This document shows positions 1,564-35,100 of a stretch of DNA of 35,272 nucleotides, piece after piece. Position numbers and translations under genes: made by a program. How positions within the stretch are numbered: position 1 is the first letter of the stretch; every line of letters starts with the position of its first letter. The stretch covers positions 1 to 35,272 of the IMG/VR virus record IMGVR_UViG_3300029714_000026; one strand, given 5' to 3'. Source of the DNA: a virus. The notes below the pieces were generated by a model, which had not been told where the DNA came from, ran no database searches, and saw only the letters and a program-made list of their open reading frames with translations.

Positions 1564-1723
1564 TGCTCATGCCCTCCTCGGTGTTGGTGGCCTCGTCCTC
1601 GGTCGGGACATCGGCCAGAATGCACAGAAAATCCACCATAGACGCAATCTGTGCCAGATCTGCGTCCCGGTTTTCGTCCTCAGTCGCGGCCTGAATGCTG
1701 CCGGGCTTGTGAAGAATTTTCAT
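1556..1723 (-). CDS. Hypothetical 55-aa acidic protein, translationally coupled to the RT gene
   Basis: Manual translation: MKILHKPGSIQAATEDENRDADLAQIASMVDFLCILADVPTEDEATNTEEGMSNG. Its ATG overlaps the RT stop as ATGA (1720-1723). Confidence 0.45.
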   Translation of the reverse strand: MKILHKPGSIQAATEDENRDADLAQIASMVDFLCILADVPTEDEATNTEEGMSNG

Positions 1724-2754
1724 GTTATCCACTCCAAAAGAGATTTAACGTATTTATCCATGCGCTGCAGCAGCTGCTTGGAGTTGCCTTTTGCGGCATG
1801 GGCTTTCCATGATTTATACTGTTCGCGCAGAGCGGTGACGGGCTTTTCGCCCGCCTTGATAAGCTGGGCCAGCCTGTACAGGCGTTTCCGCTCTGCCTTA
1901 ACGTTTTGCGGGTCAACGGTCATTATGACCTTGCCCTCCGGTGTCAGGCGGTAGATAAAGCCGAGAAAACGGAAACCATCCCGCAGCCGGACTATTTTAG
2001 TCTTGGTCGGGTGTAGTTCCATTCCCTCGGTAGCATACCGGGCCCGGATGGCCTCCCGCCACTCCACCAGCTGCTCCCTGCTATGGTGACAGATCCAACT
2101 ATCATCCATAAAGCGGACATACTTGTCCGCACGCAGGCGCTCTTTGATGTAGTGATCTATGGGGTCAGGCACCGAGATCCCGGCCAACTGCACCATCTGG
2201 CTGCCCGGACTATAACCGGCCTCGCCGGTGTATTGGCGATCCAGCACGTCACGCACACGGGCATACACGTTGTATGGCAGTTTGCGCTCAAAGCGCTGGT
2301 TTGCCACCTCGTGCGGCATCGTATCGTAATAGTGCCGGATATCTACCAGCAGACACCAGCCGTCTGGGCCGTGCTGCCGGTATTCGCGTTCTATCATCAG
2401 CTTGACCTGCTGTCGGGCCCAGTCAGTGCCCTTGCCTGTCTGACAGGCCGCATTGTGCCGGATAAAGCCCTTTGACATGGCCGGATAGACGGCATTGTCA
2501 TTGAGTGAGCGCTGATATACCCTATCCCGGAAACTGGTAGCCACCGCCACGCGGGGCTTTGGATAGGTGATTTTGACTTTTGATGTTGGCCGTGCCCTGT
2601 ATGTGCCTGTGACAAGTTCCTGATGGAGTCTCAGGATCTCGTCCATGCCAAACAGGCAATATCTGCCCACGGCAGCCTTGCGGCGCACGCCTTTGGAGCA
2701 TTTGCCCATTGAGGTATACAGGGCATCAAAGCCGATTATTTCCTCTTCTTGCAC
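1720..2754 (-). CDS. Reverse transcriptase of a diversity-generating retroelement
   Basis: RT motif A LLVDIRHYYDTM, motif C YVRFMDDSWI (YxDD-type), SPGSQMVQLAG in the motif-B region. GTG start 12 nt after AGGAG. Lies immediately 3' of a TR/VR pair and an avd-like ORF. Confidence 0.9.
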   Translation of the reverse strand: MQEEEIIGFDALYTSMGKCSKGVRRKAAVGRYCLFGMDEILRLHQELVTGTYRARPTSKVKITYPKPRVAVATSFRDRVYQRSLNDNAVYPAMSKGFIRHNAACQTGKGTDWARQQVKLMIEREYRQHGPDGWCLLVDIRHYYDTMPHEVANQRFERKLPYNVYARVRDVLDRQYTGEAGYSPGSQMVQLAGISVPDPIDHYIKERLRADKYVRFMDDSWICHHSREQLVEWREAIRARYATEGMELHPTKTKIVRLRDGFRFLGFIYRLTPEGKVIMTVDPQNVKAERKRLYRLAQLIKAGEKPVTALREQYKSWKAHAAKGNSKQLLQRMDKYVKSLLEWIT

Positions 2755-3056
2755 TGTTTTTCAGTTCTCCTCGCAAGGAGCAGCCGGGTGATAGCGGTCA
2801 ACACCCCGCAGGGTGGCCACGTCCGGCGGCTATTGTTCGCCTGCCAGAGGGCAGGCATGGCACTCGGCTCCTTGCACGGCAGTTTTCGCCCGGCCCATGC
2901 TATGCAGAGGCTTTTGTGGGTTTGCTGCCGTCCAATCCGGGGCGCTGCGATTCGCGTTGATGCCGTTCCAGTTGTTCACATTGCCGGAACTGTTGACGTT
3001 GAAGGCGTTGTTGCCGTTGCCACGATTCGCAGAGCGCAGCCGCACATTGCGGCCCA
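2755..3056 (-). ncRNA. DGR template RNA region (TR plus TR-to-RT spacer)
   Basis: The non-coding stretch between avd and RT contains the TR (2933-3056) and a 178-nt structured spacer. Confidence 0.6.
2933..3056 (-). repeat. DGR template repeat (TR)
   Basis: 124-bp ungapped match to 3556-3679. All 16 mismatches sit at TR adenines on the minus strand. In the VR frame it is rich in AAC (Asn) codons. Confidence 0.92.
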
Positions 3057-3079
3057 ATAGCCTACAGCCATTTTTTATG

Positions 3080-3490
3080 TCAGAGCGATTTATACCGCTT
3101 TGCATCATTCTCGTGCCAGTCCCGGCAGCGCTGCCGGATATCTCGCACAGTACCGCCCCAGAAAACGCACCGCTTGCCGGAGAGATGGAAACTGACTTTT
3201 GCCATGTCCATCTCAGCCAGCAGGCGGGTACACAGACGGACGGCCTGCTTCTGGAGGTCAAGCCGGGCCTTTCTGGTTTCCGGCCCGTCCACCCGGATGC
3301 TGTTGGCCTCAAAGATATCAAAATATATCTGATCGGCAGTCGCACGCAGCTGGCCGGGGAGGTGCGCGTCAATCTCCGGGTCAAAGATCTTTGCGTTTTT
3401 GGTGATCTGTCTGGTGTACAGTGCCAGATCCCGTGCATCAAGCGGCAAAGTAAATTTGTTGTCCGGGATCTCGTCTTTGCGCATTGCCAT
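3080..3490 (-). CDS. avd: Accessory variability determinant (Avd-like four-helix-bundle protein)
   Basis: 136-aa basic helical ORF located between the target gene and TR, the canonical avd position and size. Confidence 0.75.
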   Translation of the reverse strand: MAMRKDEIPDNKFTLPLDARDLALYTRQITKNAKIFDPEIDAHLPGQLRATADQIYFDIFEANSIRVDGPETRKARLDLQKQAVRLCTRLLAEMDMAKVSFHLSGKRCVFWGGTVRDIRQRCRDWHENDAKRYKSL

Positions 3491-3507
3491 GTAAAGCCCT
3501 CACTTTC

Positions 3508-3533
3508 TCACCGGGCAAGGAATTGCCCGGTGA
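3508..3533 (-). promoter_or_regulatory. Perfect hairpin immediately 3' of the DGR target gene (DGR target-recognition hairpin and/or terminator)
   Basis: TCACCGGGCAA-GGAA-TTGCCCGGTGA: 11-bp stem and 4-nt loop, abutting the stop codon at 3534-3536. Confidence 0.7.
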
Positions 3534-4787
3534 TTATGCCAATTTGGTGATTTTGCAAGCCGGGGCGCTGCGAAGCGCGTAGATGCCGCTCCAGCTGCTC
3601 ACATAGCCGGAACTGTAGACGTAGAAGGCGTAGCTGCCGCCGCCACGAATCGCAGAGCGCAGCCGCACATGGCGGCCCACAGTACGCTGTGCCAGATCGC
3701 GGGTAATGCGCAGGGGATAAGTCTGCCACAGGGCCTGCGGGGTCTTTGCGCCGGTGCGCTCTTTCCAGTAGGGCCAATAGCTGCCCTCACCGGACACCTG
3801 CGGACTGCAATAGATCTCCTGCAGGGAGGGCAGGAAAATCTTGTCATAGGTCACAACGGCGCTGCCGTCATCGGTAACGCCGTTGCCGTAGGTCACGACT
3901 TTCACGCGGGACAAAGCGCTTTTGAAGTCATCAGAGAAGCCGGACAGGAAGCCGGGCAGGGTGTCGGCCTGATCGGGTTTCATGTCCCACTTATCCTGCG
4001 GCTGCCACCATGCGCCTGCCGCTGCGTCACTGTTCAGGTACTGCCGGTACGCGGATTTCCACCACCGGTTATCGCCATAGCCAACAGGATGCAGGCCGTT
4101 CAGATCGCCGTTTTCCTTGGCAAGGAAGGTGCCGAGATTGGTGCCAGCGCTGCCAGCGGTCACGCTGCAGGTTTCCAGCAGCTCAGATTTCTGCTGATCC
4201 TTGTAGACATAGACCTTCCAGTTGGCAGGCACAACGTCCGGCGCATTATAGAAGCCGGTCAGGCGGGCACCCGCCGGGGCCGCCTTGGTCAGGGTGAACT
4301 GATAGACCGCATCGGTCTTGACATTATTGCCCCAGTTCAGGCCCATCTTGACGTTGTAGGTGCCCGCCACAAGGCCGCCGTCAGGCACCACATAGAATGC
4401 CTGATAAGCAGAAAACTGCAGGTCATACAAGGTTGCATAGTGCATCTGCAACACCATTGCCGGGACCGTGGCGCCGCTCTCGCCCTCTGCGGTATCGTCC
4501 GGCTGCACCACATCCCACGGGCAGTCGTAGGCTTTGCCGTCCTTGCCCGTGTAGGTGTTCACCAGCTGGGTGCCGGTGGGGAAGGTAATCGGGGCGCTGC
4601 CAGCGTCCACAACGGCCTTGATGGCGTTATAATCCATCTCCTCAAAAATGCCGGTCTGTGCCTTTGCCAGCACGCCCAGCGAGGCAGACACGCCCAGCAT
4701 GGTGGCATTGAGCAGATCCAGCTTTGCACCGTTGGCTTTCGCGGTTTCGTCCAGATAGATCGGATCGGTTACCATAGATTCAGCCAT
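3534..4787 (-). CDS. DGR target protein: distal tail fibre / receptor-binding protein with a C-terminal C-type-lectin-like variable domain
   Basis: 417 aa with RBS GAAAGGAG. Last of the tail-fibre genes. The C-terminus ...RLRSAIRGGGSYAFYVYSSGYVSSWSGIYALRSAP is encoded by the VR. Confidence 0.85.
   Translation of the reverse strand: MAESMVTDPIYLDETAKANGAKLDLLNATMLGVSASLGVLAKAQTGIFEEMDYNAIKAVVDAGSAPITFPTGTQLVNTYTGKDGKAYDCPWDVVQPDDTAEGESGATVPAMVLQMHYATLYDLQFSAYQAFYVVPDGGLVAGTYNVKMGLNWGNNVKTDAVYQFTLTKAAPAGARLTGFYNAPDVVPANWKVYVYKDQQKSELLETCSVTAGSAGTNLGTFLAKENGDLNGLHPVGYGDNRWWKSAYRQYLNSDAAAGAWWQPQDKWDMKPDQADTLPGFLSGFSDDFKSALSRVKVVTYGNGVTDDGSAVVTYDKIFLPSLQEIYCSPQVSGEGSYWPYWKERTGAKTPQALWQTYPLRITRDLAQRTVGRHVRLRSAIRGGGSYAFYVYSSGYVSSWSGIYALRSAPACKITKLA
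3556..3679 (-). repeat. DGR variable repeat (VR)
   Basis: Matches the TR with 16 substitutions, only at TR-adenine positions. It encodes the last ~40 codons of the target gene. Confidence 0.92.
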
Positions 4788-14595: not shown

Positions 14596-15471
14596 TCAGG
14601 CTTCGGTCTTGGTCAGCTTGTTGAACACGGTGGTGTCGCAGCGGAAGCCCACCTCGATCTCGGCACGCACGGCGAACATGTTCTGCTGGAACAGGTTGAT
14701 GGTGTTGGAACCGTCGGTCAGGGTGGCCTGGTCGGAAATTGCGATCTGCACGCCCTCCACGGTGCCGTACATGGCCTGCGACCAGTCACCGGCAAAGCCG
14801 ACAACGTGCTTCTTGGCGGCAGTGGAATCCGCGATGTAGGCACCCTTGCTCTGCAGGGTCTTTGCGCCCAGGATCATGGGCACGGCACCCTCGGCCACGT
14901 TGTTCAGGAACAGCGGACGGCCGGTGGTGTCCACGGCGTTCAGCAGGGCGGCCTTGCCCTTGGGGGACAGCACCCAGCCGTTCAGGATGCCGTTGTGGTC
15001 GGAGATGTCGGCGTCGGCAGCCACAAGGCCCTGATAGGCATTGGTGCCGATCTCCTGCGCGGTGCAGCTCTTCAGGGTGTCGAAGTTGGAGCCCGGCACG
15101 GTGACGCCGCCAAACACCGTGGCGTCGAACTTCTGGGCCAGTGCCAGCGGCAGACGCTTCACCAGCTCATCGTACAGGGCCGGCACATCGCGGCGGAACT
15201 GGTTGGAAAAGGGCACGATGACGGCCAGCGTGTAGGGCTGCATGACCTTGGTGGCCAGCGTGCCGCGCTTGACGGGCTTCTTGTCGGTCTCGCCGACCCA
15301 TGCGGCCTCCGGGTCGCCGGTGATGACCGGAATGGTCACGCCCAGGCCCGGCAGCTTGATGGAGCGGGCCAGCGCCATGACGGCGGAGCTCTCCTGCGTT
15401 TTCTGCAGGATCTCGCTGGACACCTCACCGGGCAGGGTGATGGTGGTAGTGCGGTTGATATCAGTTGCCAT
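14596..15471 (-). CDS. Major capsid protein, HK97-fold family
   Basis: 291 aa. LPGEVSSEILQKTQESSAVMALA...PEAAWVGETDKKPV...LAVIVPFSNQFRRD matches the conserved N-terminal pattern of Phage_capsid-type proteins. Preceded by a scaffold gene. Confidence 0.85.
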   Translation of the reverse strand: MATDINRTTTITLPGEVSSEILQKTQESSAVMALARSIKLPGLGVTIPVITGDPEAAWVGETDKKPVKRGTLATKVMQPYTLAVIVPFSNQFRRDVPALYDELVKRLPLALAQKFDATVFGGVTVPGSNFDTLKSCTAQEIGTNAYQGLVAADADISDHNGILNGWVLSPKGKAALLNAVDTTGRPLFLNNVAEGAVPMILGAKTLQSKGAYIADSTAAKKHVVGFAGDWSQAMYGTVEGVQIAISDQATLTDGSNTINLFQQNMFAVRAEIEVGFRCDTTVFNKLTKTEA

Positions 15472-16044: not shown

Positions 16045-16121
16045 TGGCACCGTCTGGAGGTATCGAACCTCCCGCTTCCGGTTTTGGAGACCGGCGCTCT
16101 TCCAGAATGAGCTAAGACGGC
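16045..16121 (-). tRNA. Phage-encoded tRNA-Trp (anticodon CCA)
   Basis: 77 nt reading GCCGTCT-TA-GCTC-ATTCTGGAA-GAGC-G-CCGGT-CTCCAAA-ACCGG-AAGCG-GGAGG-TTCGATA-CCTCC-AGACGGT-G-CCA. Canonical cloverleaf with G1:U72, G73 and encoded CCA. Confidence 0.85.
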
Positions 16122-16123
16122 AT

Positions 16124-16156
16124 GAAAAAAGCACCGTGCATTTTTTGCACAGTGCT
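16124..16156 (-). terminator. Intrinsic terminator (second of a tandem pair) just upstream of tRNA-Trp
   Basis: Minus strand reads AGCACTGTGCA-AAAAA-TGCACGGTGCT followed by TTTTTT. 11-bp stem with one mismatch. Confidence 0.65.
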
Positions 16157-16171
16157 TTGAAAAAATGGGCA

Positions 16172-16203
16172 ACAAAAAACCACGGTGCGTGTGCATCGTG
16201 GTT
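16172..16203 (-). terminator. Intrinsic terminator (first of a tandem pair) overlapping the stop of the 50-aa ORF
   Basis: Minus strand reads AACCACG-ATGCACACGCAC-CGTGGTT followed by TTTTTG. Confidence 0.55.
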
Positions 16204-16355
16204 CAACTTTCAATCCAAGAATATTTTTCTTTGAGCGAATTGTAAACTTTGCGAATTTCGGGTGGTGTGTCTTCACGGAGAATGTAATTTCCGTCCTTGT
16301 CGAAGGTAAACCATTCGTCCATGGATTCGCTGCGCTTAATATCTTCGTCAGACAT
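16203..16355 (-). CDS. Hypothetical 50-aa acidic protein (candidate immunity/partner of the MuF C-terminal domain)
   Basis: Manual translation: MSDEDIKRSESMDEWFTFDKDGNYILREDTPPEIRKVYNSLKEKYSWIES. It starts 1 nt after the MuF stop and is as AT-rich as the MuF C-terminal domain. Confidence 0.5.
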   Translation of the reverse strand: MSDEDIKRSESMDEWFTFDKDGNYILREDTPPEIRKVYNSLKEKYSWIES

Positions 16356-16356
16356 C

Positions 16357-17682
16357 CTAATCATCATGGAACATATCACCTACCAGTTTCAACAGTTCTG
16401 GATCCTTTCCGGTTTGCTTGTCAGCTTGAAGCAATACATCTGCAATCAATTCGTTCAGAGAATTATACCGTTGGAGGTTTACAGCGGCATTTCCACTGAC
16501 CGTGTTACGGATGTACTTCGGGTCAGATGCAAGCTGATTCTGAACGTATTCCCGTAGGTCTGCTTCAATTTCCTGCTTAACAATATCACTGCTTTTGCCA
16601 GATGTCAAGGCCTTCGCATTGATGTAGTCCCAGTGTTTTTTGTGGTGCATTTCATGCTTCAGAATATCCTCGGCATTTTCAGCGACGAAGTAACCACCGG
16701 AAAGCTGTCCCTTGATGAAATCGGCGTTTGAAATCCGCTCATTGACGTACAGACGGTTATCAACATGGTCATAGGCTGCAATGCCGGGGATATCCTTGGC
16801 AACGATGATTTCAGGAATGGCCTGAAGCTGCTTGATTTCAGCGGCTTTGTCCGATATCAGTTGAATTGTTTTTTGAGCGTCCTTCGTATTGGTTTGAGTG
16901 AAAATGGTGTCGTGCCCTTTGACCTGATAGGCCTTGATGGAGACGATTCCATTACCATCAGAGAAATCTTTCGGTACGCCCATGAAGTCAAATTTTCTTA
17001 CTGCATACGCCGCCCTTTTCTGCGCGTTGATGCGCTCCCGGTTGGCTGCATAATCAATGCGCCGCCAGTTGTTGATATCACTGCCCGCGTCACGGTACTG
17101 CCGGAGGTATTCTTCCGGGTCATAGCCGGAAACGTCAAACTCCCGGCTGAACCGCACCGCAAACTCACAATCACAGTTGGCGTGGATGTGCTGGGCGTGG
17201 CCTTTCTTCAGCAGGTTCTTGCTGGCCCGCTGCCAGCCGTTGGAGGCCAGCATCCGGCAGAACGGGCAGGCGTCGCCGTGGGGCACCCATGCCCACTCCG
17301 CGCCGTCCCGGATGGCGTTGTGTGCGGTGGTGTCCGCTCCGGCCTGCTTTACCATGCGGGAAACGCCCTGCTGCAGGCTGGGCGGGCTGTCCTGCGTGGC
17401 CTTGACCATGCCGGTCACCTCGCCGTAGGTGGCGGTGGGTGCCGGTTCTGCGGCGGGCAGGGTGACCCCCTGCGCCTCGGCCAGGGCGTCGTACATCTGG
17501 CAGGCCAGCTCTGCGCTGCCCTCGCCGTACTTGGTCACAAGGGCGTAGGCGTAGCGGATGAGGGCGTCGGTGTCGGCTTCCGGGTGCCCGTCCATGTACT
17601 CCCGCATGAGCTGCCCGGCCTTCTGGTTCAGCTGGGAAAGCCGGGAAATGTAATCATCCCATGCCGCTTGTGTCAGTTTCAT
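16357..17682 (-). CDS. Head morphogenesis protein (MuF / SPP1 gp7 family) fused to a C-terminal HExxH zincin-like domain
   Basis: N-terminal half has AEWAWVPHGDACPFCRMLASNGW (MuF-domain Cys pattern) and follows the portal gene. C-terminal ~210 aa is lower-GC and contains HEMHH. Confidence 0.8.
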   Translation of the reverse strand: MKLTQAAWDDYISRLSQLNQKAGQLMREYMDGHPEADTDALIRYAYALVTKYGEGSAELACQMYDALAEAQGVTLPAAEPAPTATYGEVTGMVKATQDSPPSLQQGVSRMVKQAGADTTAHNAIRDGAEWAWVPHGDACPFCRMLASNGWQRASKNLLKKGHAQHIHANCDCEFAVRFSREFDVSGYDPEEYLRQYRDAGSDINNWRRIDYAANRERINAQKRAAYAVRKFDFMGVPKDFSDGNGIVSIKAYQVKGHDTIFTQTNTKDAQKTIQLISDKAAEIKQLQAIPEIIVAKDIPGIAAYDHVDNRLYVNERISNADFIKGQLSGGYFVAENAEDILKHEMHHKKHWDYINAKALTSGKSSDIVKQEIEADLREYVQNQLASDPKYIRNTVSGNAAVNLQRYNSLNELIADVLLQADKQTGKDPELLKLVGDMFHDD

Positions 17683-19066
17683 CTTCCATCTCCATCAACA
17701 CCTGTGCGCCCCGCGCCCGCTGTTCCTGCGCCTTGATGCGCCGGATGTCCGCCTGGTCAAAGCCGATCATTTCCAAAAACGTGTCCGTGCTGGCAAACTC
17801 CTGCCGGGCGGATGCGATCTTGATGGCGGCGTCCGCCGTCACGGCCACACTGGGCATGGCGGGGTTCTTGAAGTGGGCCATGATGCCGGTCTCTTCCTCA
17901 GTCAGGTCGGCCAGGCGGCAGTCCCGCGCCACGGCCTGCGCCATGCAGGCGATGGTGCGCAGGGCGTCGCCGTTGCCGGTGTTCAGCTGCTGGGCCAGAA
18001 GCACCAGCGTCTGGCTCTGGGCAAGGATGGCGTCGCTGCTGGTGGGGTTGGCGTCGTTCACCACGCCCACGTCGGTGACGGTCAGGCCGGTAGCCGCCGC
18101 AAACTGGGTGGCGGTCATCCGCATCTTCTCCACATGGGGCGTCAGGCTGCCCTGTGCCAGCTGGCCCAGGGTCGGGTTTTCGCCGGTCTCCGGGTTCGCC
18201 GTGGCGGCGATAATGGCCCCCATGTAGGTCTTGAACTTGTTGGAAATGATGGCGTCATACTGCTCATCGGTCACGCCGAGGATGTACTTCTGGGGCGTGG
18301 TGGCAAATTCCAGTGCGATGGTGGCGTTGGCTGCCGTGCGGATGTAATCGTTGATCAGAGCGCGGATGGGCTTTTTGAGCCGGGAGCGGCCGAAGGGCTT
18401 GGAGTTGGTGGCGTTCCAGATCAGCGGTTCCATCAGCGGGCGGCCCATCTTGTGGGCGTAGCGCTGCGCCGTCCAGAAGCTGCCGTTTGACTGCAGCACA
18501 ATGACCGCGTCATCCGTGTAGAAGTTGACCACGGAAGGCCGCCATGTGCCCTCGAAGTGCTCATCCTTCACGGTGTCCACGATGGCAAGGCCGCAGTCGA
18601 TGCGGCCCTTCTCGCCGCTCCAGAGGGCGGCTGCCGTGGCAGGCGAGTGGAACCGGATGCTGCAGCCGATGGCGTTGTCCCCGGACAGGGTGGCAAAGGT
18701 GCAGCCGTATTTCAGCTCGTCCCGGCAGGCCTTGGCGTACTGTGCCACAAGGCGGTTGTCGGCCACCAGCTTTGCAAGGCTGTCCAGACTGCCGCCGGTG
18801 CCCACAAAGCCGTCGAACATGGAGCGGGCCGCCAGAACATCCACGGCCTTCTGGCCCCAGCTGCAGCCCACTTCCAGGTTGCGCAGGCCCTGCGGCAGGG
18901 CAATGCCAAGGTTCACGTCCTGCAGGGTGACGTGGCCCTCGTAATATTTATCTTTCAGGCGGTTGCGGCTCTGGTGGTAGTTGTAGGCGTCGGCCAGATC
19001 CTGCAGCTGCTGCAGTTCTTCCGCGCTCAGGCCCTCCATCGGGCCAAAATTCAGGGTAACGAACAT
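17654..19066 (-). CDS. Portal protein (SPP1 gp6-like)
   Basis: ATG at 19066 after GAAAGGAG, 470 aa. Lies between TerL and MuF. The track ORF's 43-aa N-terminal extension overlaps TerL and is Arg/Ala-rich junk. Confidence 0.85.
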   Translation of the reverse strand: MFVTLNFGPMEGLSAEELQQLQDLADAYNYHQSRNRLKDKYYEGHVTLQDVNLGIALPQGLRNLEVGCSWGQKAVDVLAARSMFDGFVGTGGSLDSLAKLVADNRLVAQYAKACRDELKYGCTFATLSGDNAIGCSIRFHSPATAAALWSGEKGRIDCGLAIVDTVKDEHFEGTWRPSVVNFYTDDAVIVLQSNGSFWTAQRYAHKMGRPLMEPLIWNATNSKPFGRSRLKKPIRALINDYIRTAANATIALEFATTPQKYILGVTDEQYDAIISNKFKTYMGAIIAATANPETGENPTLGQLAQGSLTPHVEKMRMTATQFAAATGLTVTDVGVVNDANPTSSDAILAQSQTLVLLAQQLNTGNGDALRTIACMAQAVARDCRLADLTEEETGIMAHFKNPAMPSVAVTADAAIKIASARQEFASTDTFLEMIGFDQADIRRIKAQEQRARGAQVLMEMEDETDTSGMG

Positions 19067-19076
19067 GGTGCTCCTT

Positions 19077-20516
19077 TCAGCCGATGCGCATCTTGCGGGT
19101 GGGGTCGCGGCGGCAGGTCTTTGCGCCCCACAGGGCCAGCGCGCAGGCTTCCACCGGCAGGCTGTTCTCGCCGCCAAAGCCAAAGCCGCCCGCAAGGGGG
19201 CGCTTGGTGGCGGTAACAGCGCTCTCGTTCAGGGCGGTCTGGGGTGCGTACCAGGTCAGGTGCTGCTCATTCACCGCGTTGGTGAACAGGCTCACGGCGG
19301 CGATCACGTCCCGTGCTCCGGGCCGGATGACCGCGTTCTTTGCCTTCCAGACCTCCCGGATGCGCTCCACCAGCACGTCCACGCCGTTGCGCCCGTCGAT
19401 GACCACGCAGCTGGCCCTGCCGTACCGGTCGCACAGCCAGTCCGCCAGCCAGGCAAGGCCCTGCCCGGTGGGCCGCAGGTCGATGAGAGAGACGCGGGCG
19501 GGCCCCTCCTTCTGGATGACCGCCCCGCACAGGCACACAGAACTGCCGTCGGCGGCAAACTTGACGCCGTAGGCGGTTTTGCCCTCGGGCTTTTCGTCCT
19601 CGCTGGCGCAGGCTGCCCACGCCTTGCGATCGAGGGCATAGTCCAGATGTTCGGTGGCCACCGGGCTCCACCAGCCCAGGCGTTCCCGGGCGAAGGTGTC
19701 GGCGTCCAGCTGCTCGCTCTCGCCCTCAATGGTGCCGTACTGGATGCGCCGCCCCAGCGCCGGGTTGGCCGCTGCCCAGCGGGCGGGATCCTTCACGTCA
19801 CCGATCTCCGGTACGCTGAACTCGAACCACGCGGCTTTTTTGGCTTCGCCGTCCAGTGCCCGCTTGCGCAGGGCACGGAACACGGTGCCCACGGCATCCG
19901 GGCCGGGCGGGGTGCCCACATAGATGGTCTGTGGGTTCAGGCTGGCCGAAATGGCCGGGATGAAGCTGCCCTGTGCAGTCTCGTCCAGCTCCTGTGCCTC
20001 GTCGAAGATGAGCAGGTCGCCGTGCTGGCCGCGTCCGCCGTTGCGGGTACGGGCCAGAAACTTGATCTTTGCGCCGCTCTTCAGGATGATCTGCTCGCGG
20101 CCCAGCGCGGTGCGAATCTCGGAAACATACCGGCGCATTTTCGGGCCCTCAAAAAAGGCCCGCATTTCCTCAAAGGTCTCGGTGGCGGTCTTTTGCAGGT
20201 GGGCCGTGTAGATGACCGTTTCGTTGAACATGAGCATGCCGGACGCCGCCCGCCCCTGCACCAGCAGGCTCTTGCCGTTCTGGCGGGGCACGCTGCCGCC
20301 CGCCGTGGGGGCAGTCCATTTGCCGGACACGGTGCGGCCCATCCAGTCGTCCAGGATGTCGCTCTGCCACGGGTCCAGCACGGTGCCGCCCGCCCGCAGG
20401 ATGCGCACGGCATCCGGCCCGTCAGTGGCCCGGTACTCCGGCGCGATGCGTTCGGACGGCTCCTGGCTTCCCATTGCTTTCTCTCTCTGCGAGGATCTCG
20501 CCGATCTCGTCGCCAT
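19077..20516 (-). CDS. terL: Terminase large subunit
   Basis: 479 aa. Walker-A-like VPRQNGKS, Walker-B-like DLLIFDEAQE, and a C-terminal nuclease-type region. The start is ambiguous: ATG 20516 after AAGGAG, or ATG 20474. Confidence 0.85.
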   Translation of the reverse strand: MATRSARSSQREKAMGSQEPSERIAPEYRATDGPDAVRILRAGGTVLDPWQSDILDDWMGRTVSGKWTAPTAGGSVPRQNGKSLLVQGRAASGMLMFNETVIYTAHLQKTATETFEEMRAFFEGPKMRRYVSEIRTALGREQIILKSGAKIKFLARTRNGGRGQHGDLLIFDEAQELDETAQGSFIPAISASLNPQTIYVGTPPGPDAVGTVFRALRKRALDGEAKKAAWFEFSVPEIGDVKDPARWAAANPALGRRIQYGTIEGESEQLDADTFARERLGWWSPVATEHLDYALDRKAWAACASEDEKPEGKTAYGVKFAADGSSVCLCGAVIQKEGPARVSLIDLRPTGQGLAWLADWLCDRYGRASCVVIDGRNGVDVLVERIREVWKAKNAVIRPGARDVIAAVSLFTNAVNEQHLTWYAPQTALNESAVTATKRPLAGGFGFGGENSLPVEACALALWGAKTCRRDPTRKMRIG

Positions 20517-21308: not shown

Positions 21309-21384
21309 TGGAGCCGTTGGCCGGACTTGAACCGGCATCGTGACCCGCCCTGACCGGACGGTGCTCTGCTTGAGCTACAACGGC
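21309..21384 (-). tRNA. Non-canonical tRNA-like gene (76 nt, encoded CCA; anticodon position reads GUC/Asp)
   Basis: Reads GCCGTTG-TA-GCTC-AAGCA-GAGC-A-CCGTC-CGGTCAG-GGCGG-GTCACGAT-GCCGG-TTCAAGT-CCGGC-CAACGGC-T-CCA. Perfect 7-bp acceptor and 5-bp T-stem with a canonical T-loop. But the D-loop is 5 nt without GG, position 33 is G, and the variable region is 8 nt. Confidence 0.6.
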
Positions 21385-28319: not shown

Positions 28320-29225
28320 TCAGCTCAGACCGTTCAGGACGGGGACGCTGCTTTCCCCGCCCACATAGGTGGGAAGCTTGCCATCCCACAGTGCATCTAC
28401 GCCGGTGATACGGTAGTATTCCAGCAGATTGCTGTCCAGACTGTCGGTCAGAGCGTCGTTGGCCTCGGCCTTTTTCTGAGCGGCATACAGCTCGGCATCC
28501 GCAGCCACCTTGGATTTTTCGGCCTCAGCCTTTGCGGCAATCAGATCCGCGTCCGCCGTTGCCTGCGCTTCCACGCGGCGCTTTTCGGCATCGGTCTCGG
28601 CCTTTTCTTTTTCCTGCTGGGCCTTCACCTTTGCTTCAACGGCATCCGTGAAGGTATCCGTGAAATCGAAATTCGTGATGCTGATGTAAGAGAGGTCGAT
28701 GTTGTACTGCGCCAAAACACTGCGCAGCTGCGCGTCCATCTGTTCTGCCACGGCATCCCGGTTGGAAATCAGACTGCTGGCATCATAGTGTGCTACAACT
28801 GCCTTGACCACCTCCGGGACACGGGGCAGGATCAGAACATCCTCGTACTTGCGGCCCACCTCTTTGTAGATGGTCATGGCATTGGCCTGATTGATCCGGT
28901 AGCCCACCGTCACGCTGGTGGCCACTTCCTGAATGTCGGAACTGAACGCCGAGAGGTCGATGCTGACCTCCTGCACCCGGTTATCCATCTTGACAATGGA
29001 CTGCCACGGTGCCTTTACCACAACGCCTGCGTCCTTGGTGCCATTTTCGACCTTGCCAAAGGTAGTCACAATGCCGGTGTAGCCGGTCGGCACGAACGAG
29101 ACACAAGAAATAACGATCAGGACGGCCGCCAGAGCGCCGGGAATCACGGCAGCGGCCTTATACTCAGACCGGAACAGGCAGAATGCTGCCAACAGAGCCA
29201 GAATGCCAAAAATAAAAAAGATCAT
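28320..29225 (-). CDS. SPFH / band-7 (prohibitin-stomatin-HflC-like) membrane protein
   Basis: Two N-terminal TM segments, then PTGYTGIVTTFGKV...VVVKAPWQSIVKMDNRVQ, and a long Ala/Glu/Lys coiled-coil: the typical SPFH architecture. Confidence 0.8.
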   Translation of the reverse strand: MIFFIFGILALLAAFCLFRSEYKAAAVIPGALAAVLIVISCVSFVPTGYTGIVTTFGKVENGTKDAGVVVKAPWQSIVKMDNRVQEVSIDLSAFSSDIQEVATSVTVGYRINQANAMTIYKEVGRKYEDVLILPRVPEVVKAVVAHYDASSLISNRDAVAEQMDAQLRSVLAQYNIDLSYISITNFDFTDTFTDAVEAKVKAQQEKEKAETDAEKRRVEAQATADADLIAAKAEAEKSKVAADAELYAAQKKAEANDALTDSLDSNLLEYYRITGVDALWDGKLPTYVGGESSVPVLNGLS

Positions 29226-31750: not shown

Positions 31751-31951
31751 TCACGCTTTCGGCTCCCGTTCCAGCAAATAGTCAATGGAGCAATGGAACA
31801 GATCCGACATCATTACAAGTTTTGACTGTGGGATGCTGCCGTGGGCCATCCAGTTGTAAACAGTCTTTCGCGTCACGCCGAGGTGCTTTGCAAGATCTTC
31901 CACGGTCATTCCTGCCCGGCTGCGTTCTGCGTTAATATTGGGATAAGACAC
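31751..31951 (-). CDS. Cro-like XRE-family HTH regulator
   Basis: 66 aa. GTG start 7 nt after GAAAGGAGA. MTVEDLAKHLGVTRKTVYNWMAHGSIP is an HTH. Divergent from the repressor gene. Confidence 0.75.
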   Translation of the reverse strand: MSYPNINAERSRAGMTVEDLAKHLGVTRKTVYNWMAHGSIPQSKLVMMSDLFHCSIDYLLEREPKA

Positions 31952-31975
31952 CTTGAAATCTCCTTTCTGTCTTTC

Positions 31976-31994
31976 GTTACTCGTTTTGAGTAAC
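31976..31994. promoter_or_regulatory. Operator-like palindrome GTTACTC-N5-GAGTAAC
   Basis: Perfect 7-bp arms between the Cro-like RBS and -10-like TATAAT/TATACT elements of the leftward promoter. Confidence 0.55.
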
Positions 31995-32080
31995 CACTAT
32001 TATAGTATACCCGAAACGAATATTTGTAAAGAAAAAAATTACCCAATTTGAACAGCCGATTTTTGTCTAAACCGCCCAAA

Positions 32081-32110
32081 TTGAGTAAAACGCATTGTTT
32101 CATTACTCAA
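32081..32110. promoter_or_regulatory. Second pair of the same half-site: TTGAGTAA-N14-TTACTCAA
   Basis: The same TTACTC/GAGTAA hexamers in the opposite relative orientation. It overlaps the -35 region of the rightward promoter (-10 TATTATAAT at 32117-32125). Confidence 0.5.
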
Positions 32111-32147
32111 AATGTGTATTATAATAACTAGAAAGGAGTTGGTGCAA

Positions 32148-32759
32148 ATGAATCGCCTATCTCAGCTCCGTCAAGAAAAAGGGCTCAATATGAGAGAGGC
32201 TGCACGCGGACTAAATATGCCGTACACAACGTATGTGAACTATGAGAAGGGCACAAGAGAGCCAAACTCGGAAACGCTCATTGCGTTGGCAGAATTTTAC
32301 GGGGTGTCAATTGACTATCTCCTGTGCAAGAGCAGCACCCCCAACAGTGGCGAGATCCCGCCGGGATTTCAGCCAATGCCCGCCATGACAGAGGTGCCAC
32401 TGGTTGGCCGGATCGCCTGCGGCACGCCGATCACGGCAGAGGAGAACGTGGAGCGCATGGTCTGTGTCCCCTCAAAATGGCACGCCACCTTCACGCTGAC
32501 CTGCGAGGGCACCAGCATGGAGCCGCGTATCCATGACGGCGATCTGGTAGCTATCCGCAGTCAACCCACGGTGGAAAACGGCGAGGTTGCCGCTGTGCGG
32601 ATCGAGGGAGAGGCCACCCTGAAACGGGTATATTTGCACAGCAACTTTATCGAGCTGCGGGCCGAAAACCCGAACTTTGAAAGCATTATCCTTGCCAAAG
32701 AGGACATGAACACCGTAACGATCGAGGGCAAGGCCGTGGGGCTTTGCAGGGATATCTAA
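32148..32759 (+). CDS. CI/LexA-like repressor: XRE HTH plus S24 autopeptidase domain
   Basis: ATG at 32148 after AGGAG. N-terminal HTH LNMREAARGLNMPYTTYVNYEKG. C-terminal GTSMEPRIHDGDLVAIR (catalytic Ser) and ATLKRV (Lys). Confidence 0.85.
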   Translation: MNRLSQLRQEKGLNMREAARGLNMPYTTYVNYEKGTREPNSETLIALAEFYGVSIDYLLCKSSTPNSGEIPPGFQPMPAMTEVPLVGRIACGTPITAEENVERMVCVPSKWHATFTLTCEGTSMEPRIHDGDLVAIRSQPTVENGEVAAVRIEGEATLKRVYLHSNFIELRAENPNFESIILAKEDMNTVTIEGKAVGLCRDI

Positions 32760-32776
32760 AACACGGAGGTGAGAGC

Positions 32777-33334
32777 ATGAAAGGAGTAGCCAGAATCGGC
32801 GTAGTGGCAGGCGTGATGGTTCTTTGCCTGACGGCTTGCGGTGAAAGCAGAATTTCAGTATCATCGGAAACTACGTCCGCTATTTCGCAACCTGCAGAAG
32901 TGTCAACGGAGTATTTCAAATCTGATAAGGGATTGAATCATTTCTTTCAGAAATATAATGAAATTGCTGAATATCCTTTTGAAGAGGAGCAAATACAGCA
33001 GGGAAACGTAAAAGCAAAGGCTTTAATCTCAACTGGCGATTTTTATATTGAGATGGTCAATAGCCGAAACGGCCTCGAAATTCTTATAGATGATGGCCCA
33101 GAAGAATCGGTTGCGCTTTACCCTGTTTTCCGAGATTTTTTGAAAGTCATGGACGACTCGCTTTCCGATGAACAAATTAAACAGGCATGGAGCGATATCA
33201 AGAAAATTGGGACAAAATATATGTATGATGGAAACTATACTTTAAACAGTTTAAAAATGAACTACAGCAATGTGGAATTTCAAGGTTCTCGTCAAGTGAA
33301 AGTCCATATCTACGGCCTGCAATATTCGGCATAA
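32777..33334 (+). CDS. Lipoprotein (moron; candidate superinfection-exclusion factor)
   Basis: ATG at 32777 after GGAGGTGA. Signal peptide with lipobox VLCLTAC. The body of the gene is markedly AT-rich compared with the rest of the prophage. Confidence 0.7.
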   Translation: MKGVARIGVVAGVMVLCLTACGESRISVSSETTSAISQPAEVSTEYFKSDKGLNHFFQKYNEIAEYPFEEEQIQQGNVKAKALISTGDFYIEMVNSRNGLEILIDDGPEESVALYPVFRDFLKVMDDSLSDEQIKQAWSDIKKIGTKYMYDGNYTLNSLKMNYSNVEFQGSRQVKVHIYGLQYSA

Positions 33335-33355
33335 CCAGAAGAGGAGTGCAATATT

Positions 33356-33826
33356 ATGGGGTTGCGATTCAGAAAAAGCATAAAACTGGGAGGTCTCCGT
33401 ATCAATTTTAGCAAATCTGGCATCGGGTACAGTTACGGCGTTAAGGGGCTTAGATACACGAAAACAGCTAATGGAAAGGATCGCATCACGGCCTCTATTC
33501 CGGGCACCGGTATATCCTATGTGGAAGAGAGCGCCAGAAAAAAGCGAAAAGGTTCATCAACGCAGCCAGTTGTACCGGAGCCAAAGAAAAATTATCGAAT
33601 TCCGCTGGCAATAAAAGCACTTGCCGTTTTGTGCGGCATCGGATTTGTTGCCTATTATATGGTGCAGGGGTTGGAAATGGTCACGGCGTTGTGTTCCGGC
33701 GCGCTCATGGGCGGTCTGAGCTATCTCGCTCTTTCCTTTCTGTATGGAGCGGCGGCGGAAGCAGTTGGCTCCTTGCTACACAAGGACGTCTCACCTGCGC
33801 AGAATGATGATCCCGAGGAAAAATAA
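33356..33826 (+). CDS. DUF4236-like protein with C-terminal transmembrane helices
   Basis: MGLRFRKSIKLGGLRINFSKSGIGYSYGVKGLRYT is the characteristic DUF4236 opening. It has 2 C-terminal TM segments. Confidence 0.7.
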   Translation: MGLRFRKSIKLGGLRINFSKSGIGYSYGVKGLRYTKTANGKDRITASIPGTGISYVEESARKKRKGSSTQPVVPEPKKNYRIPLAIKALAVLCGIGFVAYYMVQGLEMVTALCSGALMGGLSYLALSFLYGAAAEAVGSLLHKDVSPAQNDDPEEK

Positions 33827-33972: not shown

Positions 33973-35100
33973 TTGAAATGTCAGAGAACCGCCTGCGGGC
34001 GGGATATCCCAGAGGACGCGCTGTTTTGCCCCTACTGCGGGAAAAAGCAGCAGCGCACGGCAGCGCCAAAGCCGCGCAAGCGTGCCAATGGCAAAGGCAG
34101 CGTGTACCGCCGGGGAAAATCATGGTGCGCGCAGTCGCGTATATATCGCGGCGGCGTTCTGGTGTTTGAGCGCATAAAAGGCGGCTTTCCCACACGGGCG
34201 GCAGCTGAGGAATATCTGGACGGATACACCCGCACCGGTGTGGCACCCAGATCCATGCGCCTGATTGACTGCTGGATGGCCTTGCAGGAAACAAAAAAGT
34301 GGCAGGCCCTCAGCAAGGACAAGCGCAGCCATTATGGCACCGCATGGCGCAGGCTGGAACGGATTCAAATGCAGGTCGTTGGGCAGATTCCCTTTAAGGT
34401 ACTGCAGGAACTGACGGATGCCGCGCCCGGTGACTACTATGCCCACAGGGATATAAAAACGCTTCTGGGCAAGCTGTATGAGGTAGCCGTTACCAGCGAG
34501 GCGCTGGACATGGCGCAGGACAAAACGGCCCTGATCGAACTGCCACCGGTGCCAGACAGCGAGAGGGACGCTTACACCGTGGACGAGGTACACGGGATGT
34601 GGATGGCATACCGCGCCGGGGACGATCTGGCCCGGTATGCGCTAATCCTGTGCTATACCGGCATGAGGCCGGGCGAGTTGATGCAGCTGGATCTCTCCAA
34701 CATCGACTTGCAGCGGCAGCGCATTGTGGGCGGTATTAAGACGGCAGCGGGCAAAAACCGGGAGATCCCCATAGTCACGGCCATTGTGCCGCTGGTGGCC
34801 GAGGCCATGCAGGTGGCCACCCACGGTCTGGCCGATGGCTGCCGTGAGCACTTCTATGATCGCTGGTGTCCGTCCGTGGAGCGCTGGGGAGGAAGGCCAC
34901 ACATGACGGCCCACAGCTGCCGTCACACGCTGGCAACGGCTATGGAGGCCGCCGGGGTGTCGGTGCTGCTGCAAAAGCTGATCCTTGGGCACGCTGTCAA
35001 GGATATCACGCAGCATTACAGCCGCCACCAGCCTTTTGAGGATAAGCTGGCCGCCGTTGAGCGTGCAACGGCCATTTTTAACGAGGATGCGGGTAGCTGA
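33973..35100 (+). CDS. int: Tyrosine integrase with an N-terminal zinc-ribbon
   Basis: TTG start 8 nt after GGAGGT. CQRTACGRDIPEDALFCPYCG. Catalytic pattern YTGMRPGEL (R), HSCRHTLAT (H-x-x-R), LGHAVKDITQHY (H...Y). Adjacent to attR. Confidence 0.88.
   Translation: MKCQRTACGRDIPEDALFCPYCGKKQQRTAAPKPRKRANGKGSVYRRGKSWCAQSRIYRGGVLVFERIKGGFPTRAAAEEYLDGYTRTGVAPRSMRLIDCWMALQETKKWQALSKDKRSHYGTAWRRLERIQMQVVGQIPFKVLQELTDAAPGDYYAHRDIKTLLGKLYEVAVTSEALDMAQDKTALIELPPVPDSERDAYTVDEVHGMWMAYRAGDDLARYALILCYTGMRPGELMQLDLSNIDLQRQRIVGGIKTAAGKNREIPIVTAIVPLVAEAMQVATHGLADGCREHFYDRWCPSVERWGGRPHMTAHSCRHTLATAMEAAGVSVLLQKLILGHAVKDITQHYSRHQPFEDKLAAVERATAIFNEDAGS

Follow-up and report, generated by a model that had tools for sequence, protein, structure and literature searches.

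The window analysed here comprises positions 1 to 35,272 of the IMG/VR virus record IMGVR_UViG_3300029714_000026, a stretch of 35,272 nucleotides (nt), and the element under study is a 441-amino-acid (aa) open reading frame (ORF) of its late operon, together with the small ORF that follows it. On the minus strand, this operon runs from a terminase-position ORF through a portal-position ORF, the 441-aa ORF and the small ORF to two hairpins, a tRNA-Trp gene, a scaffold gene and a capsid gene. The 441-aa protein's C-terminal domain and the small ORF form a cassette of foreign composition, and the locus as a whole probably represents a polymorphic effector/toxin cassette of the MuF type, made up of an injected protease and a co-expressed partner inhibitor. 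An initial annotation of the window had described a 441-aa ORF after the portal gene and interpreted it as a MuF protein with a swappable C-terminal domain; the gene lies where it had been placed, and the arrangement is supported at the architectural level. The features of the locus are the following:

16357-17682, minus strand: 441-aa MuF-like/protease ORF, directly following the portal-position ORF with a 29-nt overlap
16993-17682, minus strand: MuF-like (VG15) head-morphogenesis N-domain (residues 1 to ~230) of the 441-aa protein, with the demarcation motif INAQKRAAY at its end
16357-16992, minus strand: predicted C-terminal zincin-like metalloprotease domain, residues ~231-441 plus the stop, from an AlphaFold2 (AF2) model and structure matches
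16642-16656, minus strand: HEMHH, residues 343-347, within the invariant HExxHKxH(W)(D) (alignment A1 and genome loci)
16438-16455, minus strand: NELIAD, residues 410-415, in which Glu411, the candidate third zinc ligand, stands where a predicted helix begins (conservation and AF2)
16203-16367, minus strand: small partner ORF, 54 aa (MMIRMSDEDIK...WIES), with an 11-nt overlap with the upstream stop; candidate inhibitor/immunity protein
16207-16992 (786 bp), minus strand: exchanged low-GC cassette consisting of the C-terminal metalloprotease domain and the small partner ORF, with boundaries from the alignment to the related phage L039

The cassette is set apart from its surroundings by base composition. 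The guanine-plus-cytosine (GC) fraction falls to 0.41-0.47 over approximately 16100-17000, versus 0.60-0.72 on either flank, and the break lies inside a gene: the C-domain stands at 0.450 and the small ORF at 0.405, versus 0.650 for the N-domain, 0.642 for the portal gene and 0.643 for the capsid gene. Within the 441-aa ORF, GC at third codon positions (GC3) drops from 0.83-0.97 (residues 31-180) to 0.40-0.63 (residues 211-441), so that the AT-rich character previously ascribed to the last ~210 aa relative to the operon is borne out by computation of both sliding GC and GC3. The block 16207-16992 has a GC fraction of 0.444 versus a mean of 0.595 for same-size windows (standard deviation 0.053; z = -2.9). 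Values as low as that of the cassette occur in 16 of 1317 non-overlapping windows, the lowest of which (0.412) starts at 32851, in an AT-rich island of the lysogeny module. A foreign origin is also indicated by the distribution of the relatives of the cassette, found mostly in low-GC Firmicutes (Streptococcus, Lachnospiraceae, Gemella, Granulicatella).

The boundaries of the cassette are defined to the base pair by comparison with L039, a 96%-identical phage. L039 aligns solely to positions 21690-16993 and 16206-13669 of the window, leaving 16207-16992 as the non-homologous block, which begins at codon ~230 of the 441-aa gene and takes in the small ORF. In its place, L039 has a DUF6883 domain and an unrelated, overlapping 61-aa ORF, while the hairpins, the tRNA-Trp, the scaffold and the capsid genes belong to a backbone common to both phages. 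The C-domain and the small ORF have been exchanged as one unit, as this comparison shows directly, and the composition break is therefore explained. The proposal of the initial annotation that the C-terminal module and its partner had been acquired together is confirmed in this way, the difference from L039 being exactly the cassette. DNA identity to the window ends at 16993 in L039 and at 17003 in L041, a 95%-identical phage. In L041 (4001-6470), a MuF-like gene of 351 aa carries yet another unknown C-terminus and is directly followed by an opposite-strand gene of 476 aa that runs to the contig end and may be an insertion at the same hotspot. No second copy or orphan of the cassette was found in the window, nor was the 35-nt repeat that lies between the cassettes of L001.

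Residues 3-199 of the 441-aa protein match the Pfam family VG15 (PF25310) with an E-value of 9.7e-47. Up to an E-value of 1, the Pfam scan of this protein returned solely VG15 and a sub-threshold AdeT1_2 match, with neither PF04233 (Phage_Mu_F) nor PF06152 and with no peptidase or polyvalent-protein model. The N-terminal half had been called "MuF/SPP1 gp7-type", which holds approximately, but the family that it matches is VG15 and not Phage_Mu_F. In a comparison of VG15-type and Phage_Mu_F-type alignments with hhalign, a shared CxxC...HxxC(R/D)C core was aligned weakly (probability 9%, E 0.0036), and a 28%-identical relative of the N-domain in the Rothia phage Spartoi is annotated as "MuF-like domain protein". 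The putative designation "MuF-like" is based on synteny, the shared motif and annotation, with no formal family match.

The N-domain is conserved. At E <= 1e-10 the 224-aa N-domain has 3603 relatives. The closest of them (94-98% identity) have a total length of 335-389 aa and C-termini that are CdiA_C-like, DUF6883 or unknown, and those at 72-75% identity bear PBECR2/3 nuclease C-termini; the HExxH domain is absent from the best 120 of the 3603. Altogether, at least 8 unrelated C-termini are attached to N-domains of 72-98% identity, with divergence setting in after Y226. The same is seen in alignment A3, where little varies in the N-domain columns as far as Y226 (...RRIDYAA...INAQKRAAY), beyond which proteins with different C-termini diverge completely. 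The C-region is consequently not the ordinary conserved part of the protein, in agreement with what had been anticipated from the sequence of the window.

These data bear on the possibility that the HExxH domain is a cis-acting processing peptidase that matures the MuF fusion, the scaffold or the capsid, with no target in a recipient cell. The N-domain matches PHROG families 193/13257/1752, and its PHROG and GenBank relatives are labelled "head maturation protease"; moreover, there is no separate prohead protease gene between portal and capsid, and autoprocessing roles for metallopeptidases (MPTases), such as P1 DdrB, have been discussed by Iyer et al. (PMC5512222). Phages with 96%-identical scaffold and capsid genes, however, carry non-protease C-domains (DUF6883, CdiA_C-like, PBECR2 nuclease) at the same position, and the protease is therefore not needed for assembly. 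In addition, the protease is the terminal domain and has no downstream payload to release, and a maturation enzyme would not readily account for a dedicated partner gene that is swapped along with it. We regard a morphogenetic protease as quite improbable, and it has been rejected as the main explanation on account of the non-protease domains of the 96%-identical phages.

The C-terminal domain contains the zincin motif HEMHH, which had been pointed out in the initial annotation and has proved to be strictly conserved among homologues with the full domain. Invariant positions in alignment A1 are, in domain numbering, H119, E120, H123, K124, H126, N186, E187 and A190, corresponding to H343, E344, H347, K348, H350, N410, E411 and A414 of the protein, and they fall into two motifs, HExxHKxH(W)(D) and NExxA(D/E), 68 residues apart. 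HExxH is invariant in all 22 aligned full-domain proteins down to ~28% identity, as is NExxA(D/E), and 22/22 assessable genome loci contain both motifs, the sources being Lachnospiraceae, Oribacterium, Fusobacterium, Faecalibaculum, Gemella, Granulicatella and many Streptococcus. Both are also found in the Streptococcus phages Javan59 and Javan489.

The AF2 model of the C-domain (predicted local distance difference test, pLDDT, 92.2; predicted template modelling score, pTM, 0.88) has a probable metalloprotease fold, in which a strand sheet precedes the long helix that carries HExxH, and a further helix begins at NE (186-197, domain numbering), giving a two-helix zincin core. Structure comparison is suggestive of a zinc metallopeptidase for the domain and yields no informative match for the small ORF. 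With Foldseek, zinc metallopeptidases were the only matches among those listed for the PDB, the best template modelling score (TM-score) being that of anthrax lethal factor (LF; TMq 0.45-0.47, probability 0.6-0.8), and others including M1 aminopeptidases, selecase and lugdulysin. Among the viral models of BFVD, the best matches (E 2.8e-5 to ~1e-2) are named "Metalloprotease" and "Lethal factor" (both at E 2.8e-5 to 1e-3), "Minor capsid protein", "Phage head morphogenesis domain" and "endopeptidase family M34", together with polyvalent proteins, and internal-core proteins are also among the neighbours. No Pfam, NCBIfam or PADLOC model matched the C-domain; no PDB-sequence relative was found for the whole protein or for the domain profile, the curated-family searches being empty at E-values up to 1-10, and the single PHROG match is phrog_4728, "head morphogenesis". 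According to the model, the C-domain is a divergent LF-like zincin with an intact catalytic signature, and it is predicted to be active. The exact 441-aa protein is intact on 207 contigs, is abundant in human gut metagenomes and is annotated as "hypothetical" everywhere.

The small gene had been described as a 50-aa acidic ORF. The ORF exists and is AT-rich, but its start had probably been set four codons short, since ATG 16367 (54 aa) and not 16355 (50 aa) is most likely the start codon because AGGTGA lies 8 nt upstream, the homologues share an invariant N-terminal MMIRM and gene calls on 431 public contigs give the 54-aa form. The protein is acidic in the window (isoelectric point, pI, 4.65), although acidity is not a trait of the family: with pI values spread over 4.4-9.4 and no conservation of net charge, the notion of an "acidic partner" has been rejected. 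A homologous ORF of 52-66 aa follows every examined copy of the HExxH domain and overlaps the end of the upstream gene in nearly all of them. It accompanies the domain in 22/22 genome loci as well as in L001 (twice), L002, L003, L005, L008, L011, Javan59 and Javan489, and it tracks the C-domain whichever N-domain family carries the latter. A Trp and the segment (F/L)(K/R)xD(T/A)P are conserved. The AF2 model of the small protein consists of a helix, a beta-hairpin and a second helix (pLDDT 75), for which Foldseek against the PDB gave unrelated matches (chemokines and similar), all with E > 1. Searches of Pfam, NCBIfam and PADLOC gave no match, and PHROGs gave the marginal phrog_20195 alone.

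A candidate promoter of near-consensus sigma-70-like sequence, TTGACA-17-TATTGT with TG-n directly before TATTGT, lies at 16608-16580 on the minus strand, inside the protease coding region and upstream of the small ORF. Its sequence is conserved in L005, though within conserved coding sequence, and it could give the partner gene independent expression.

It might be supposed that the cassette is a recent selfish or decaying passenger with no current phage function, followed by an unrelated or spurious small ORF, since its composition has not been ameliorated and truncated and orphan copies are common. Such a passenger would not be expected to keep its catalytic-type residues invariant down to ~28% identity, nor to preserve, in the loci examined, both the sequence (W, (F/L)(K/R)xD(T/A)P) and the overlapping position of the small ORF, nor to be found intact as an exact protein on 207 contigs, and we hold this explanation to be very improbable.

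Homologues of the C-domain are numerous. A word-index search returned 44, and an exhaustive profile search returned 266 representative clusters at E <= 1e-3 and 77 at E <= 1e-30. Full-length proteins, which are 440-880 aa long, always have it at the extreme C-terminus, and 10 full-length representatives that were examined have VG15, Phage_Mu_F or Phage_min_cap2 N-domains, that is, three MuF-type families. As all 10 of these carriers are MuF-type, sharing of the domain with toxins of the type V, type VI and type VII secretion systems (T5SS, T6SS and T7SS) was not seen among them. In P0055 (882 aa), an intein-splicing domain is inserted between Phage_Mu_F and the HExxH domain.

The domain family also includes Phage_min_cap2 derivatives that lack HExxH (P0034, P0038, P0033, P0039 and P0044), in which the junction joins ...FYPFY to KEHWDY..., and two of these, P0033 and P0039, have over 200 member sequences each. 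In L011, an HExxH-less half-domain is still followed by the small partner ORF.

Copies outside complete phage head genes have been found in related loci. In L001 (2800-7200), a tandem array consists of a full VG15 protein with a CdiA_C-like C-terminus, an orphan, and another HExxH orphan that is truncated and has a partner of its own. The first orphan starts inside VG15, of which it retains a 257-nt homology arm (95% identical), and comprises the HExxH domain and its partner. A 75-nt repeat (a hairpin and then CCCGGAGAACCCCTCCGTCAGCGCAGCTGACACCTCCC), present in three copies, lies between the modules of this array and is absent from the window. Remnants in which the HExxH domain and the partner are preceded by no more than a truncated MuF tail occur among host genes in at least 4 independent contexts (L002, L005-7, L008-10 and L011-12). 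Those isolated among ordinary host genes are:

L005, 6947-8086: remnant, adjoining a host tRNA-Tyr (GTA), whose end falls within a tRNA-Trp fragment sharing 86% identity with the window backbone
L011, 2886-3690: remnant adjoining a host tRNA-Tyr (GTA) and adjacent to a serine-integrase prophage
L002, 5001-6157: remnant
L008, 5001-6028: remnant

Read from their sequences, these orphan arrays and remnants are hallmarks of polymorphic toxins.

The same architecture and mode of delivery would also suit a protease that acts as an early host-takeover or anti-defence effector, cleaving a host defence or regulatory protein to the benefit of its own infection or in the lysis-lysogeny decision. The small protein would then be an inhibitor for the producer cell or a packaging chaperone and not an "immunity" protein. 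This possibility, which has been raised for peptidase payloads by Iyer et al. (PMC5512222) and by Jamet et al. (PMC5576092), agrees with the translational coupling of the small gene in a late operon, better suited to safeguarding the producer cell than to lysogen immunity, with the tolerance of HExxH-less derivatives, and with the presence of polyvalent and internal-core proteins among the BFVD neighbours. On the other hand, the L001 orphan arrays and the chromosomal remnants that keep the small gene are the classic toxin/immunity signature, and the occurrence of the exact 54-aa protein on 431 contigs versus 207 for the exact 441-aa protein is what would be expected if the small gene alone were worth keeping. 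On balance we consider a takeover effector unlikely, though it deserves serious attention, and the label "toxin" may in any case be too narrow, as an injected protease for host takeover or anti-defence would suit just as well.

The idea of MuF proteins as a capsid-based route of toxin delivery was first proposed by Zhang et al. in 2012 (PMC3482391), and the MuF polymorphic toxins of temperate phages were described by Jamet et al. in 2017 (PMC5576092), who reported metallopeptidase payloads in 20% of such proteins. In that work the MuF superfamily consists of PF04233, PF06152, MuF3 and MuF4, and a small ORF under 150 aa lies downstream (PMC5576092). The cited MuF-toxin literature contains experiments on nucleotide-pyrophosphokinase domains, and no metallopeptidase or protease payload has been tested experimentally in it. 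The locus studied here fits this family: the phage is temperate, the gene comes directly after the portal gene, a conserved head N-domain precedes a variable enzymatic C-domain, a small ORF stands next to it, and the same C-domain is common to several MuF-type N-domain families. The principle has already been published; the protease/partner pair is unnamed and belongs to no curated family. Differences from the published toxins reside in the N-domain of the window protein, which is Pfam VG15 and neither PF04233 nor PF06152, and in the protease domain and its ~55-aa partner, which match no Pfam, NCBIfam or PADLOC model. Moreover, the term "orphan" does not appear in the main text of Jamet et al. 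(PMC5576092), whereas tandem orphan cassettes and remnants are seen here, and the supplement of the same article gave no text match for names of metallopeptidase domains.

The predicted protease shares with anthrax lethal factor and the M34 zincins the HExxH on a long helix and the Glu on a later helix (NE motif), with LF giving the top PDB TM-score (0.47) and with BFVD neighbours named "Lethal factor" and "endopeptidase family M34". It differs from LF in having no detectable sequence-profile relationship to it (no Pfam or PDB sequence match), in its size of ~210 aa, in the additional invariant K348 and H350 (HExxHKxH), in the spacing of 68 residues between HExxH and Glu, and in being fused to a phage head protein instead of being secreted. 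LF-like MPTases are also known in the polyvalent proteins of phages and plasmids, in which 2-15 effector domains are joined in one large polypeptide and MuF is a frequent fusion partner (PMC5512222). As in those proteins, an LF-like HExxH domain, with polyvalent proteins among its BFVD matches, is found here in a putatively virion-associated phage protein for which delivery with the DNA is predicted; unlike them, the window protein has two domains only (MuF-like and one payload) in 441 aa and a dedicated small partner gene. Finally, the locus resembles the cassettes of contact-dependent inhibition (CDI) and Rhs systems in that a variable toxin and its partner come after a demarcation motif (INAQKRAAY here, VENN in CdiA), and in that L001 contains promoter-less orphan copies with a 257-nt homology arm for recombination. 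The differences are that the vehicle would be a phage capsid and not a T5SS or T6SS, and that the window has no orphan copy.

Under the favoured reading, that of a MuF-type effector/toxin cassette, the following course of events is proposed. By analogy with Mu F and SPP1 gp7, whose capsid location is established knowledge summarised in PMC5512222, the N-domain would place a few copies of the fusion inside the capsid near the portal. The C-terminal ~210 aa would be a horizontally acquired, LF-like zinc metalloprotease with His343, His347 and Glu411 as proposed zinc ligands and Glu344 as catalytic base, and recombination at the conserved INAQKRAAY junction would replace the cassette by different effector/partner pairs. 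In the phase of late expression, the small protein, translated together with the protease, would bind the latter and keep the producer cell unharmed, and the fusion would be packaged via its MuF part. The fusion would be ejected along with the DNA at the next infection, and its protease would cleave a cytoplasmic bacterial target, lysogens or cells with an orphan copy of the small gene being protected.

Several observations weigh against this course of events. The common Phage_min_cap2 derivatives keep the C-terminal half of the domain alone, without HExxH, and catalysis is therefore dispensable in some lineages. The PDB structure matches of the C-domain are weak, all with E > 0.03, and no sequence profile ties it to a curated peptidase family such as Pfam M34/ATLF. 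The membership of VG15 in the MuF superfamily is weakly supported by the hhalign profile-profile comparison. As regards the partner, the small protein has no recognisable fold match or family annotation, and no obvious partner ORF accompanies PBECR2 in the variant L040, so that a partner is not universal at the locus. The small gene, furthermore, is in the late operon and has no demonstrated lysogenic promoter, so that immunity in lysogens is a supposition, as are binding and inhibition of the protease by the small protein.

The 441-aa gene lies immediately downstream of the portal gene in the head/packaging module, a gene order that recurs in L001, L039, L040 and the Javan phages. The portal-position ORF has no Pfam match of its own in the Pfam scan; its L001 counterpart (72% nt identity) is PF05133, SPP1_portal. 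The two hairpins had been presented as tandem terminators following the small ORF. They do exist, each with a U-run after it, and fold with a minimum free energy of -34.2 kcal/mol (z = -4.59 versus shuffles), but they are part of the conserved backbone and not of the acquired block, the region being conserved in L039 and L005. A simple consensus terminator scan missed them, and their support comes instead from RNA folding. In the related L040, a tRNA-Thr (CGT) occupies the position of the tRNA-Trp. The window belongs to a gut phage that, judging by its genes, is temperate, as a tyrosine integrase and a repressor are both present. The host is probably Faecalibacterium, since the close protein relatives with a source name derive from this genus; the DNA of the window matches uncultured human-faecal phages, and short stretches also match Faecalibacterium phages. 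The neighbouring genes and the lysogeny markers are:

21309-21384, minus strand: tRNA-Asp (GTC), upstream of the terminase region, also in the 96%-identical L039
19077-20516, minus strand: terminase-position ORF (ORF list)
17654-19195, minus strand: portal-position gene, 513 aa (ORF list), whose stop overlaps the start of the MuF-like gene by 29 nt
~16177-16204 and 16128-16158, minus strand: two tandem terminator-like hairpins with U-runs, backbone, outside the cassette
16045-16121, minus strand: tRNA-Trp (CCA), found by ARAGORN, backbone, between the cassette and the scaffold gene, also in L039
15491-15979, minus strand: scaffold-position gene (ORF), whose L040 counterpart is PF06810, Phage_scaffold
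14596-15471, minus strand: HK97-type major capsid protein (PF05065, Phage_capsid, E 8e-29)
33973-35100: tyrosine integrase, lysogeny marker
32112-32759: helix-turn-helix (HTH) and S24 repressor, lysogeny marker

Elsewhere in the window, a diversity-generating retroelement (DGR) is present at 1720-4787 on the minus strand, in which all 16 mismatches between the two repeats (16/16) are template A to another base in the variable copy; the DUF6273 protein at whose C-terminus the variable repeat lies is probably a receptor-binding protein. A second AT-rich island, with GC of 0.42-0.52, extends over 31800-33600 and corresponds to the repressor/DUF4236 region of the lysogeny module. The features concerned, and one further annotated protein, are:

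1720-2754, minus strand: DGR reverse transcriptase ORF (Pfam RVT_1)
2933-3056, minus strand: DGR template repeat, 124 nt
3556-3679, minus strand: DGR variable repeat, 124 nt, 87% identical to the template
3534-4787, minus strand: 417-aa DUF6273 protein (ORF), with the variable repeat at its C-terminus
28320-29225, minus strand: SPFH/Band-7 protein (protein annotation)

Delivery of MuF toxins by the capsid was predicted in 2012 and 2017, and proteases account for about one fifth of the family. The near-identical Faecalibacterium phages that differ by a single 0.8-kb cassette, with boundaries defined at the base-pair level, offer a clean natural experiment in this respect, and prophages of two tractable hosts, Streptococcus pyogenes and S. 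mitis, contain the same protease/partner pair. More tentatively, and as a rather unlikely extension of the argument, the ~54-aa protein may found an undescribed inhibitor family for a phage-borne LF-like zincin, the injected protease may cut a target that is conserved throughout the Firmicutes, from Streptococcus through to Faecalibacterium, and chromosomal orphans, such as those by tRNA-Tyr, may persist because the small gene protects against incoming phage proteases. If this last point were true, prophage debris would act as anti-effector immunity. The system could show whether phage particles inject an active protease, which targets it cleaves, and whether the small partner represents a new kind of zincin inhibitor.

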